The notes under the pieces: model-generated
What the model was told of the DNA's origin: nothing
What the model saw: only the letters and a program-made list of their open reading frames with translations
The model's database searches: none
In this document: one piece after another, positions 7,723 through 25,049 of the stretch
Position numbering within the stretch: position 1 is the stretch's first letter
How the letters are laid out: each line of letters starts with the position of its first letter
DNA from: Escherichia coli
Lineage (GTDB): Bacteria; Pseudomonadota; Gammaproteobacteria; Enterobacterales; Enterobacteriaceae
NCBI RefSeq assembly: GCF_050920415.1
Contig: NZ_CP169309.1
Length of the DNA: 64,000 nucleotides
Reading direction: 5' to 3' (one strand)
Position numbers and translations under genes: made by a program

Positions 7723-10538
7723 CAGGCAAACTTACGTTTTTCACCGTCACCGGCGACGTTGCTGACACAGCGGCCGCAGATTTCTGCGTGTTCCGCCACC
7801 TTGCCGACATCCTGGGTGTAGTGCCAGCAGCGTGGGCACTTCTCACCTTCGGCTTTACTCAACGCGACTTTCAGCCCTTTGAGTACTTCGCTCTGCTGAG
7901 CATCAGCAGGGGCGTCGTTATAGTCTGCAACGGTAGCGCCGGAGGTCAACAGGACAAATCGTAATTCATCGCCCAGCGCGGTCAGTTTCGCCGCCAGTTC
8001 CGGTTCTGCATACAAGGTTACTGCCGCTTCCAGCGAGCCACCCACTTTCTTGTCGGCACGTGCTTGCTCAATGACTTTGTTCACTTCGCCACGCACTTTC
8101 AGCAGCTCGTCCCAGAACGCATCGTTCATCGCTTCGCTGTCTGCCAGACCAAACAGGCCTTCGTACCACTCGCCGGTGAAGACGTATTTTTCACGTTCGC
8201 CCGGCAGATAGCCCCACACTTCATCAGCGGTGAAGGAGAGGATTGGTGCCATCCAGCGAACCAGCGCTTCTGCGATGTGATACAGCGCAGTCTGGCAGCT
8301 ACGACGCGCCACGCTGTCCGCTTTCGCGGTGTACTGGCGGTCCTTAATGATGTCGAGGTAGAAAGAGCCCATCTCAACGGAGCAGAAGCGCATCAGACGC
8401 TGTACCACTTCGTGGAAATCGTATGCTTCGTACGCCTTGAGGATGTCTTCCTGCGCCGCTTTCGCACAACCTACGGCCCAGCGATCCAGTACCACCATCT
8501 CTTCCGGTTTCACCATATCTTTTGCCGGATCGAAACCGTTCAGGTTTGCCAGCAGGAAACGTGCAGTGTTACGGATACGACGATAGCTGTCGGCTGCACG
8601 TTTCAGGATCTCGTCAGAAACGGCCATTTCACCGGTGTAGTCCGTTGATGCCACCCACAGACGCAGAATATCCGCGCCCAGTTTGTTCATCACATCCTGC
8701 GGCGAAACGGTGTTGCCGATGGATTTAGACATCTTGCGACCCTGACCATCCACGGTAAAGCCGTGGGTCAGTACCTGACGATACGGCGCTTTGCCTTTCA
8801 TCGCGGTGGAGATCATCAGGGAAGACATGAACCAGCCACGGTGCTGGTCAGAACCTTCCAGATACATGTCCGCTGCGTGACCAGCAAATTCCGGACGCAC
8901 GTCAACAACAGAAGAGTGGGTAGATCCGGAGTCAAACCATACGTCCAGCGTATCCGGCACTTTCACGTACTGATCAGCTTCGTCGCCGAGGATCTCTTTC
9001 GCATCAAGATCCCACCATGCCTGAATGCCATCAACTTCAACGCGTTTTGCCACTTCTTCCATCAGTTCGAGGGTACGCGGATGCAGCTCTTCCGTGTCTT
9101 TGTGCACGAACAGTGACATCGGTACGCCCCAGGTGCGCTGACGGGAGATACACCAGTCAGGACGGTTAGCGACCATCGACTCGATACGCGCCTGGCCCCA
9201 GTCAGGGATCCACTGCACGCCTTTGATCTCTTTCAGTGACTGCGCACGCAGACCTTTCTGATCCATGCTGACGAACCACTGCGGCGTAGCGCGGAAGATG
9301 ATCGGCGTTTTGTGACGCCAGCAGCACGGATAGCTGTGCTGCATTTTCTCAACGTGCAGCAGCGCGCCTTTTTCCTGTAGCAGCGCAACGACGATGTCGT
9401 TCGCTTTGAAGACGTTAACACCATCCAGCGTCGGGTAAGTACCCGGCAGATAAGTACCGTCCGGGCCAACCGGGTTAGCGGTTTCCAGACCATATTTCTG
9501 ACCGATCACATAGTCGTCCGGACCGTGGCCTGGCGCGGTGTGAACGGCACCGGTACCGGCATCCAGCGTAACGTGATCGCCAAGAATTGCCGGAACGTCG
9601 AAGCCCATAAACGGATGGGTAAAGCGCAGCAGCTCCAGCTCCGCACCTTTTACCGTGCCGAGAATGGTGTAATCGGTCACGCCGATACGCTGCATTACGC
9701 TTTCAACCAGATCTTTCGCCAGAATCACGGCCTGACCGTCGATCTGCACCAGCGCATAGTCGAAATCCGGTGCAATGGAGATTGCGCGGTTGGCAGGCAA
9801 AGTCCACGGTGTAGTGGTCCAGATCACCAGCGAGATTGGACCGTTAACGTTGCTTACGCCAAATTTTGCTTTCAGTGCATCCTGATCGACTGCCTGGAAA
9901 GCGACGTCGATGGACGGAGAAGTTTTGTCGTAATACTCAACTTCCGCTTCTGCCAGTGCAGAACGGCAGTCAACGCACCAGTGCACCGGCTTCGCGCCTT
10001 TGTGCAGGTGACCGTTGCCGATGATTTTGCCCAGCGCGCGGATGATGTTGGCTTCAGTTTTGAAGTCCATAGTCAGGTACGGGTGCGACCAGTCGCCCAG
10101 CACGCCCAGACGGATAAAGTCTTTGCGCTGACCGTCAACCTGGGTCGCAGCGTATTCACGGCACTTGGCGCGGAACTCAGCAGCGGTGAATTTCTCACCC
10201 GGCTTACCGTATTCTTGCTCTACTTTCAGCTCGATCGGCAGACCGTGGCAGTCCCAGCCAGGCACATACGGCGAGTCATAACCGGAAAGCCCTTTGGACT
10301 TCACGATAATGTCTTTCAGAATCTTGTTAACCGAGTGACCAATATGAATGCTGCCATTCGCATAAGGAGGGCCATCATGCAGAATGAAGGTTTTTTTGCC
10401 TTTTTTAGCCGCACGGATGATGCCGTACAGATCATCATCAGTCCAACGCGCCAGCATTCCCGGTTCACGCTTGGCGAGATCGCCACGCATCGGGAACCCT
10501 GTTTCCGGCAAATTCAGGGTTGATTTATAGTCACTCAT
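7722..10538 (-). CDS. ileS: isoleucine--tRNA ligase
   Basis: 938-aa ORF with class-I HIGH ([14 protein letters not shown]) and KMSKS motifs and the C-terminal zinc-binding Cys cluster. Confidence 0.96.
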
Positions 10539-21903: not shown

Positions 21904-23397
21904 TTAGCCCCAGGTCACTGCTTCTGGTTTATCACCTCTGGCTTTCATTAGAGAATCATTATCAATATCACTTTTATATTTTAAAAACTTACCATACATC
22001 TGTTTTTCAATATCTGGTTTTTTACCGATCAGATTAAGTGTTTCAAAACGATCAGATTTAAGATTATAGAGATATTTCGGTTTATTATTGCGATCGATAA
22101 TCATCTTCCAGTCACCATCACAGATCGCCCATTCATCGGTTGGATCATCCTGGAATGGCATATCAATCCCGAAAATTAATGGCTTTTCGCGTTTCAATGC
22201 TTTTTGCTCAAGAACAGGAACCAACGATTCGCCATCAAAAGTGCGGTCCGTCGGTAATTTGAAGTTCATCATTTTCGCCAGCGTAGGCATCCAGTCCAGA
22301 CCATAAACGGGAGTATCTGAAACCATTCCCTTTGGAAGATGCTTTCCGTATTTAATAATCGCCGGAACACGGATGCCGCCTTCCCAAAGATTATCCTTGC
22401 GACCACGTAATCCATCAGTTTCCCCTGCCAAATTCAGTTCATAAACTTTACGTGCTTCACGGGTTACTGGGCCGTTATCACTGGTAAAAATAACGATGGT
22501 GTTATCTTCTTCACCCATCGCTTTGATTTTATCCAGTACTTTTCCAACCTGAGCATCCAGATAACTGATGTTGGCATAATATTCCCCCACACCACGCCAG
22601 GGTTTATCCGCCCAGTCGCCATAAAATAAATCAGGATGCTGCTTCTGATACGCGCTCATATATTGTGAGTACATGTCGAGGTATTTTTTGGGCGAAGCCA
22701 GGGGGCTATGCACTTCGGTAAAAGCGACATAAAGGAAGAAAGGCTTACTATCCTTTTTGTTATCCAACCAGTTAACGACTTCCGAACTGACATACTCACC
22801 ACTCATTTTATCGGCACGAGGTGTGGGTTGCCCGTTACGCAACCAACCCGTCGGATACACCATGCCAAAACGGGGACGCTCCTTCGCATTATCCAGAGTA
22901 GCGTCGGTAACAAAACCCGCCGTATTAACCAGTGAGTAATCAAAGCCCATATCTTTTGCCTGAGGCTGATCGGTACGATCGCCGCCTGCATTCAGATGCA
23001 GCTTACCCATCATTGCCGTGTCGTACCCTTGCGCTTTGAGTAGATTAGCAATCGTGAGTTCATTACGCCCTAATGCCACATCTTTTCCCGTTGGTATCCA
23101 TGAACGTATGCCGGTACGAAATGGCATCCGCCCCGTTAATAACCCCGCTCGCGAAGGAGAACTTAAGGGAGCTGGGGCATAGTAGTCAGTAAATTTGACG
23201 CCCTCCTGGGCAAGCCTGTCAATATTGGGGGTTTTAACGATCTGATGACCATATGTTGCTAAATCGCCATAACCTAAATCATCCGCCATAATAATGACTA
23301 AATTAGGTTGTTTAACCTCTGCGGCTAAGGCAGGACTAAAAGCATTCCCTGTGCAAACTGCAAGGCCGATCAAACTGGCCATTAACGTTTTCTGCAT
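21904..23397 (-). CDS. periplasmic Ser-type sulfatase (arylsulfatase family)
   Basis: 497 aa with a signal peptide (MQKTLMASLIGLAVCTGNAFSPALA), the MADDLGYGD metal-binding start and the sulfatase signature SSPSRAGLLTGR carrying Ser in place of the modified Cys. Confidence 0.85.
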   Translation of the reverse strand: MQKTLMASLIGLAVCTGNAFSPALAAEVKQPNLVIIMADDLGYGDLATYGHQIVKTPNIDRLAQEGVKFTDYYAPAPLSSPSRAGLLTGRMPFRTGIRSWIPTGKDVALGRNELTIANLLKAQGYDTAMMGKLHLNAGGDRTDQPQAKDMGFDYSLVNTAGFVTDATLDNAKERPRFGMVYPTGWLRNGQPTPRADKMSGEYVSSEVVNWLDNKKDSKPFFLYVAFTEVHSPLASPKKYLDMYSQYMSAYQKQHPDLFYGDWADKPWRGVGEYYANISYLDAQVGKVLDKIKAMGEEDNTIVIFTSDNGPVTREARKVYELNLAGETDGLRGRKDNLWEGGIRVPAIIKYGKHLPKGMVSDTPVYGLDWMPTLAKMMNFKLPTDRTFDGESLVPVLEQKALKREKPLIFGIDMPFQDDPTDEWAICDGDWKMIIDRNNKPKYLYNLKSDRFETLNLIGKKPDIEKQMYGKFLKYKSDIDNDSLMKARGDKPEAVTWG

Positions 23398-23417: not shown

Positions 23418-24178
23418 TTAGAAATCATAACCAAGCATATAAATCATTTGATCGCCAAAGCCATCGTAGCCCAGCTTATTATCGAAATAACGCCACGTCA
23501 CACTGGCTTTCCAGCGAGGATAGAACTTCCAGGCAATAGTTAAACCGCCATTTAACCCGTTCCGACCAAATTGCTGCTCCGTGTAAGCATCGTTCCTATC
23601 CAGTTCTATTTCATTCCAGTTAGATAAAACAAATTTTTCGTCAAATAACATAAATGGCAATACTGCTGTCCAGCCAACAACATAACCATTCCAACCATTC
23701 GTTTGACCATATTTAGCTGATACGTAGTCACCAGATTGATTATGTAATCCAATATACGGTTTACCCCCCCCCATGAACCATTCCAGCCGAGGTAGCCCAA
23801 ACCATAAAACATATCAAGATCGTCACCCCATGAGTTATCCCATTGACCATAGATCTTGCCAAAGAAAGTCATATCAGAGTCAAAGAGTCTGACATGCGTC
23901 ATTGCTGAAACTGTATGATTTCTCCCTGCTACAGCATGATTGAGTACATTACTTTCATAAAATGAGTAAAATTCTGCTTCTTTAAAATTTACCCCAAAAT
24001 CCGCAGTCACTTTCCATACTTCACCACGGTGAGTGTTTACAAATCCACTATTCCAGTCTGCATAACCCGCATTTATTGAACCAAAGGTTCCTTTATATTC
24101 TAATGAAGAATATGCAGGAAAATGATAGATAGCTGTTATCAGGGTACACGCAATAAGAAGTCGTCTTTTGGCAGACAT
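23418..24178 (-). pseudogene. Tsx/OmpK-family-like outer-membrane beta-barrel protein, frame interrupted at a homopolymer tract
   Basis: N-terminal ORF (24178-23606, signal peptide MSAKRRLLIACTLITAIYHFPAYS) and C-terminal ORF (23774-23418, ending GYDF with aromatic-rich strands) are offset by one base exactly within a 9-nt C/G run; one extra G would fuse them as ...WNGSWGGGKPYIG... Confidence 0.6.
23764..23772. repeat. homopolymeric tract (C9 on plus, G9 on the coding strand) inside the Tsx-like gene
   Basis: Read directly: ttaCCCCCCCCCatgaacc. Confidence 0.9.
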
Positions 24179-24946: not shown

Positions 24947-25049
24947 GAGCAACGGCGGGGAGTGATCCCCGCCACTTTACAGGTGCTCGCATATCTTCAA
25001 CGCACCCTATTTTTACCCAAGCCTGCCCACAGGCAGGCTTTTGGGGAGG

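Follow-up and report, generated by a model that had tools for sequence, protein, structure and literature searches.

The split OmpK gene and its island

The stretch of Escherichia coli DNA analysed here (64 kb; hereafter, the window) contains a three-gene island between mokC/hokC, which adjoins dnaJ, and nhaA. The first gene of the island belongs to the OmpK/Tsx family of outer-membrane β-barrels (positions 23418–24178, minus strand; 761 nt, from the ATG at 24178 to the TAA at 23418) and is frameshifted at a run of nine G residues on the coding strand (C9 on the plus strand, 23764–23772), which forms a –1 frameshift site. The N-terminal frame (23606–24178, minus strand) reads ...LGWNGSWGG and then leaves frame, encoding 190 residues, of which residues 1–137 are authentic and the other 53 are out of frame. 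The C-terminal part, corresponding to codons 140–253 of the intact protein (23418–23763, minus strand), is out of frame and is included in the ORF list as a separate frame of 118 residues (23418–23774; MGGGKPYIGLHNQSG...MLGYDF), the two pieces being displaced by one base across the G run. An earlier note on this DNA had claimed that a C9 at 23764–23772 splits a Tsx/OmpK-like gene into frames offset by one base, and both the position of the run and the ORF list agree with it. The note had further predicted that one extra G would give a continuous protein of about 255 residues; the continuity holds, and the length is in fact 253 residues, the intact alleles measuring 762 nt. The C-terminal part of the gene carries no further inactivating mutation and matches the alleles with ten G residues except in the tract itself and at two synonymous sites; its pN/pS in comparison with other alleles is ~0.02–0.06. 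The G9 run is the longest G/C homopolymer of the 64-kb window, for which a first-order Markov model predicts about 0.18 G/C runs of at least 9. A literature search found no paper mentioning this tract.

A second long G/C homopolymer, C8 at 14019–14026, lies ~50 nt before the stop codon of a 490-residue ORF that has no Pfam match. This run is C8 in ten related loci and C7 in one (L013), where the predicted product is extended to 499 residues; the C7 represents either another length-variable run or an assembly error of that record.

The repaired protein (G10) matches the Pfam family Channel_Tsx (PF03502; E value, 4e-14; residues 105–253), and its database homologues also bear PF03502; orthologues are named 'outer membrane protein OmpK' in RefSeq, in which the copy of the closest genome is annotated 'frameshifted'. 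Because a sequence search of solved structures with the OmpK protein gave no match, a fold search was needed. The AF2 model of the 253-residue protein, built with 28 homologues as input, is a barrel with 12 main strands (pLDDT, 91.4), and the top PDB fold match of this model is E. coli Tsx (PDB ID: 1TLW; TM, 0.66; E value, 8e-8), with a structure-based identity of ~14%. As read from the sequence itself rather than with a dedicated predictor, the N-terminus (MSAKRRLLIACTLITAIYHFPAYS) resembles a signal peptide and the C-terminus (...MLGYDF) ends in Phe; the model predicts an N-terminal helix spanning residues 3–18. The protein thus shares with Tsx (1TLW) and Vibrio OmpK (PF03502) the Pfam domain, the signal peptide, the C-terminal Phe, and, by prediction, the 12-stranded barrel. 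In contrast to them, it is shorter (253 residues), only ~14% identical to Tsx, linked to a sulfatase, and below the cut-off of NCBIfam PRK11528 (115 bits vs 282), and it is a member of the Channel_Tsx family but not a PRK11528 equivalog. On the basis of the model, the gene product is predicted to be a 12-stranded outer-membrane channel of the Tsx/OmpK type. Since its genetic linkage is with a sulfatase and not with nucleoside metabolism, the channel may have a substrate other than the nucleosides of Tsx.

The sulfatase gene (21904–23397, minus strand; 497 residues, intact) starts 20 nt past the OmpK stop codon and is probably co-transcribed with the OmpK gene, so that the upstream frameshift may exert polarity on it; a promoter scan found no convincing sigma-70 site upstream of the OmpK gene. 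Arylsulfatase-like NCBIfam models match the sulfatase under their equivalog cut-offs. The protein, considered periplasmic, has a signal peptide and, at the place of the (C/S)-x-P-x-R formylglycine motif, the sequence S-S-P-S-R, by which we take it to be a Ser-type sulfatase requiring a separate maturase; none is recognisable within the island. The third gene (20516–21775, minus strand; 419 residues) has as its only family match an IS1/IS1595-type N-terminal zinc-binding domain. Its two alleles diverge strongly, with ~250 differences over 1.5 kb, and that of the relatives designated sublineage B below is split by a 41-bp deletion, while almost no differences are seen in the OmpK and sulfatase genes next to it. 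This juxtaposition suggests a recombination boundary. A region described as 'putative cerebroside sulfatase' corresponds to this variable module, which is present or fragmented depending on the E. coli group, and is also found in the clade I strain M863 (PMC4182557).

Two further features of the neighbourhood vary among the related loci. A chaperone-usher fimbrial operon beside nhaR (~14316–17139 in the window; 17040–19863 in L013) is fragmented in this lineage into usher pieces of 270, 91, and 115 residues and chaperone pieces of 136 and 98 residues, and shows another pattern of fragmentation in sublineage B. In L014 (AP025751.1, a complete genome), a DDE transposase of an insertion sequence (7921–9039) lies between dnaJ and mokC, at a site equivalent to about position 25000 of the window, in which the insertion is absent.

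The normal form of the gene and the derivation of the G run

Of 5426 complete E. coli genomes, 1273 have the OmpK gene, 1271 of them with at least 80% of it covered, and only one, MFDS1022581 (H1, G8), carries a copy at least 99% identical to that of the window. In the intact orthologues, the region corresponding to the G run is built differently. The allele of phylogroup B2 (L002) reads TGG GGC TTT TTT AAA (GGGGCT6) and that of CE10 (L003) reads TGG GGG TTT TTT AAA (G5T6), both encoding Trp-Gly-Phe-Phe-Lys-Pro. The same WGFFKP peptide is present in E. albertii and in genomes that are near the window in housekeeping genes, including 2013C-4282, a strain listed as clade I (PMC10100065). Altogether, the sampled B2, CE10, and clade I genomes, E. 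albertii, and eight metagenome contigs carry G5T6, GGGGCT6, or G6T5; among the genomes sampled, the long G run is therefore not maintained across the lineages of the species but is confined to one sublineage. These orthologues also ruled out G10 as the original or usual state of the gene.

The two residues replaced by the run are of a conserved type in the family. In 27 homologues with identities down to 30%, the first is always aromatic and the second is Phe, Ile, or Leu, followed by an invariant Lys-Pro, and in the AF2 model the Phe-Phe positions form the start of strand 7, after a short turn. Because other lineages and the family at large keep an aromatic and hydrophobic character at these positions, the sequence comparison indicates that the G run is a derived swap of T5 for G within the G5T6 junction. 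A single metagenome contig (L034, 3637–3674) carries an in-frame G6T5 allele (TGG GGG GTT TTT AAA, WGVFKP) on an unrelated, CE10-like (L003) backbone, and no such allele was found in RefSeq complete genomes. This G6T5 is a T-to-G change at the junction, of a kind from which the expansion of a G run could start.

The remainder of the gene has evolved quite differently. Outside the tract, pN/pS is 0.02–0.07 in comparison with four other alleles, indicating strong purifying selection, and T177M, at a variable position, is the sole other amino-acid change, whereas five nucleotide changes are crowded into codons 137–139. General decay of the gene before the frameshift was ruled out by these values and by the single change elsewhere, and the concentration of changes in three codons of a gene otherwise under purifying selection points to a local mutational event at the run. 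As for the route from T5 to G5, successive substitutions at the junction (dislocation-type) and paired slippages (–1 T and +1 G) are both compatible with the G9TT allele described below. Templating of the run by a quasi-palindrome was ruled out, since a C run of at least 5 that could act as template is absent from the gene.

Tract-length alleles in near-identical relatives

We surveyed the tract by exact-sequence look-ups in a collection of 15 billion proteins, followed by retrieval of the DNA of representative loci. Four alleles were found, with at least 90 records bearing a G-run allele. Two are in frame: G10T, encoding WGGGKP (L004–L012; its product in 6–11 contigs, from at least 9 independent records), and G9TT, encoding WGGVKP (L022–L026). 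The other two are frameshifted: G9T, giving the 190-residue product (the window and L013–L016; at least 55 contigs, in 72 index blocks), and G8T, giving a 138-residue product (L001/L017, CP169399.1, annotated 'frameshifted', and L018; 2–4 contigs). The G9T product (P0016) also occurs in records named E. coli M863 and 1.2741. The earlier note had held that a G10 allele would restore the gene, and the G10 alleles of relatives encode exactly the predicted protein, the repaired 253-residue sequence being present verbatim in public data; the comparison of tract lengths among related genomes that it had called for yielded the four alleles above, and the tract is thus not of one fixed length. Exact look-ups detected no product of G7, G11, G12, or G13 in the protein collection, and among possible intermediates on the backbone of the window neither WGVFKP nor WGGFKP was present, only WGGVKP (G9TT).

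Across all four allele groups, the gene varies at just two other sites, each of them synonymous. Over 16 kb, the window and L015 show no SNPs and no indels between them, L013 (G9) and L017 (G8) differ by no SNP, and the window and L004 (G10) differ by three; lengths of G8, G9, and G10 thus occur among genomes of one sublineage (A) that are 0–4 SNPs apart over 16 kb. The genomes of a second sublineage (B; G10T or G9TT) are a few sites apart over 20 kb. The tract has undergone at least three changes, and the remaining ~750 nt of the gene only two, which distinguish sublineages A and B and are synonymous. Indel rates of E. coli increase exponentially as runs become longer, and G·C runs of 8 bp are already outlier hot spots (PMC8510543).

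The abundance of G9T bears directly on whether the run is a homopolymer base-call or assembly error in a gene that is truly G10 and intact, as the earlier note had allowed. Such errors do occur in public assemblies, and an example may be at hand: a T5 version of the B2-type allele (L019–L021, at the equivalent of window positions 23759–23772), also a frameshift, fills 88 index blocks of the protein collection, yet it comes mainly from short contigs and from assemblies with a split sulfatase gene, and none of the 932 B2-like alleles from complete RefSeq genomes matches it exactly. These T5 alleles are probably a homopolymer sequencing error or a minor lineage, and with 0 of 932 exact matches and the sulfatase also broken in those assemblies, T6 to T5 as a true frameshift hot spot of B2 strains was set aside. 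The G9 of the window behaves otherwise. It recurs in 55 contigs (72 blocks) from assemblies made with many independent read sets and assemblers, in which the neighbouring genes are intact; these contigs are mostly 10–50 kb and, judged by size alone, resemble short-read assemblies; and it is phylogenetically coherent, being linked to marker sites. Because G9 recurs in this manner and the window equals L015 over 16 kb with no other difference, G9 is taken as real; concordant independent assemblies and phylogenetic coherence ruled out a base-call error for it, and we regard an intact G10 behind the reported sequence as extremely improbable. The rare G8 could in principle be an under-call of G9 and should be taken with some caution.

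Marker sites in the flanking sequence allowed a tree of the representative loci to be drawn, 20 similar G9 places lying outside this sample. In sublineage B, the flanks upstream of the island differ by ~0.5–1%, and all members sampled carry an in-frame allele (G10T or G9TT). Within sublineage A, L004 and L007 (G10T) and L016 (G9T) keep the ancestral base at marker 12057, and the derived T is common to the window and the rest of the G9T genomes; the G8T genome is nested beside a G9T genome with no SNP between them. The resulting branching is B (G10T/G9TT), the basal A genomes L004/L007 (G10T), L016 (G9T), and the 12057-T clade (G9T, with G8T nested). The simplest history would comprise one change from G10 to G9, one from G9 to G8, and a change of the G10T/G9TT boundary in B. 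Among the representative loci, the flank tree requires no OFF-to-ON reversal, a sampling in which revertants inside the G9 clade may be missed. Parsimony is weak at a hypermutable site, and a root at G9TT with restoration of G9T to G10T in L004/L007 is a conceivable alternative, G9T being the one-step intermediate between the two in-frame alleles.

A probable slippage pseudogene weighed against a possible ON/OFF switch

Based on the above results, the following course of events may be proposed. In one Escherichia sublineage, which probably sits within cryptic clade I, the G5T6 sequence (Gly-Phe-Phe) would have been converted to a long G run, G9TT (Gly-Gly-Val) or G10T (Gly-Gly-Gly). Since indel rates rise exponentially with run length, this lengthening would have raised the mutability of the site far above that of the remaining gene. 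In the clone of the window, replication slippage would then have deleted one G (G10 to G9), so that translation would exit the frame after Gly137 and stop 53 codons further on, and the barrel would presumably not be made; a sub-branch would have lost a further G, giving G8. The OFF state would be heritable, and the addition of one G would restore the gene, with revertants expected more often than ordinary mutations. Selection may have favoured the OFF state, for example through phage or colicin pressure on a surface receptor.

Some full-length channel could in principle still be produced from the split gene by recoding, either by slippage of RNA polymerase on G9 or by –1 ribosomal slippage on G GGG GGG. 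The run formally fits the slippery heptamer X XXY YYZ, the downstream frame is intact, and long homopolymers cause transcriptional slippage in bacteria, where it is best documented for A/T runs and less so for G/C runs such as this one. However, the 94 nt after the run contain no stimulatory RNA structure (z = –0.67), and programmed recoding is therefore unlikely; moreover, the relatives are plainly in frame, so that a frameshifted configuration is not conserved. We consider recoding very unlikely to contribute, and at most as a low-level leak.

The central question is whether the run is a selected, reversible ON/OFF switch operated at useful rates by slipped-strand mispairing and caught here in the OFF state. 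ON/OFF variation of surface proteins driven by repeats is rarely documented in Escherichia but plays a central part in the biology of Neisseria, Haemophilus, and Campylobacter. The contingency loci of these genera and of Helicobacter resemble the present locus in that a poly-G tract of 8–10 residues lies in the ORF of an outer-membrane protein and its length sets the frame, and in that ON and OFF lengths coexist here among near-identical genomes. A simple repeat within an ORF and a length polymorphism with both ON and OFF lengths in close relatives are the usual in-silico signs of a putative phase-variable gene, and the locus displays both, because its tract length varies among genomes 0–4 SNPs apart. 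The gene also belongs to the class typically targeted (a G run of 9–10 inside the ORF of an outer-membrane protein), its in-frame and out-of-frame lengths both occur in nature, and the OFF alleles are otherwise intact; with G9T one step from both G9TT and G10T, past OFF-to-ON rescues are conceivable. If the locus were such a switch, the surface-exposed channel may be a receptor for phages or colicins.

Several of the same comparisons speak against a switch of this kind. The repeat is missing from all other lineages of the gene compared, the tree needs no reversal, and almost all isolates of the affected clone have OFF as their consensus, whereas the sampled members of sublineage B are all in frame. 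The run also displaced two aromatic/hydrophobic residues kept by the family, which looks like a mutational accident. In contrast to the known contingency loci, the tract is new, arose from G5T6 in one sublineage, and shows no reversal on the tree. E. coli has intact mismatch repair, slipped-strand phase variation is uncommon in the species, and a repertoire of homopolymer contingency loci is not known from this host. An established contingency locus is accordingly a tentative and rather unlikely reading. Of the earlier proposal that a phase-variable switch is now OFF, the length polymorphism (G8/G9/G10) is upheld, whereas the confinement of the run to one lineage and a tree without reversal do not favour the switch itself.

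It is also imaginable that a contingency locus is being born here. G5T6 would have proceeded stepwise to G10T by alternating loss of a T (OFF) and gain of a G (ON), each round lengthening the G run and rendering it more slippery, with the G9T of the window as the OFF intermediate between G9TT and G10T. Several reversible OFF/ON cycles would then already have been passed under selection in a lineage proficient in mismatch repair. We find this scenario quite doubtful.

The reading that we favour, and hold to be moderately probable, is that slippage at a newborn, hypermutable tract has recently made the gene a pseudogene, rather than that the gene is an evolved, regularly switching contingency locus. 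With the run confined to one sublineage, no reversal on the tree, and OFF as the consensus of the clone, the data agree with such a pseudogene no less well than with a functioning ON/OFF switch. The OFF alleles without a second inactivating mutation, together with an intact sulfatase gene and third gene, are switch-like, and they are equally expected of a frameshift that is only a few SNPs old. Such an event has parallels among the recent frameshift pseudogenes of clonal pathogens, as in Shigella, Salmonella Typhi, and host-restricted lineages, in which a one-base indel in a run disables an accessory gene with a surface or transport role. The loss is fixed in one clone, the gene is intact in relatives, and in the lineage of the window a nearby fimbrial operon is fragmented as well. 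The present case differs from them in that the run was newly created and is long enough to have changed among G10, G9, and G8 in near-identical genomes. As to the earlier suggestion of a fixed pseudogene, nearly all isolates of the clone are OFF, and the pattern in the population resembles unidirectional shortening that became fixed in one clone, with G8 and G10 in near-identical relatives and no further inactivating mutations. In either case, the site is real, highly mutable, and in principle reversible, and at most a putative on/off switch.

The locus provides a dated, small-scale example of a long coding homopolymer born from the junction of two short runs, and shows the speed at which the length of such a run can change, with four alleles in genomes otherwise a handful of SNPs apart. 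The lineage of the window lies in or near cryptic clade I, from which intestinal pathogens are reported to be emerging (PMC10100065). Without switching that is both reversible and frequent, the gene would be an ordinary recent pseudogene, of use chiefly for annotation and as a marker of the lineage. With such switching, the locus would offer a tractable model of how a contingency locus is born, and would bear on reasoning about phage receptors or vaccine antigens in that lineage.
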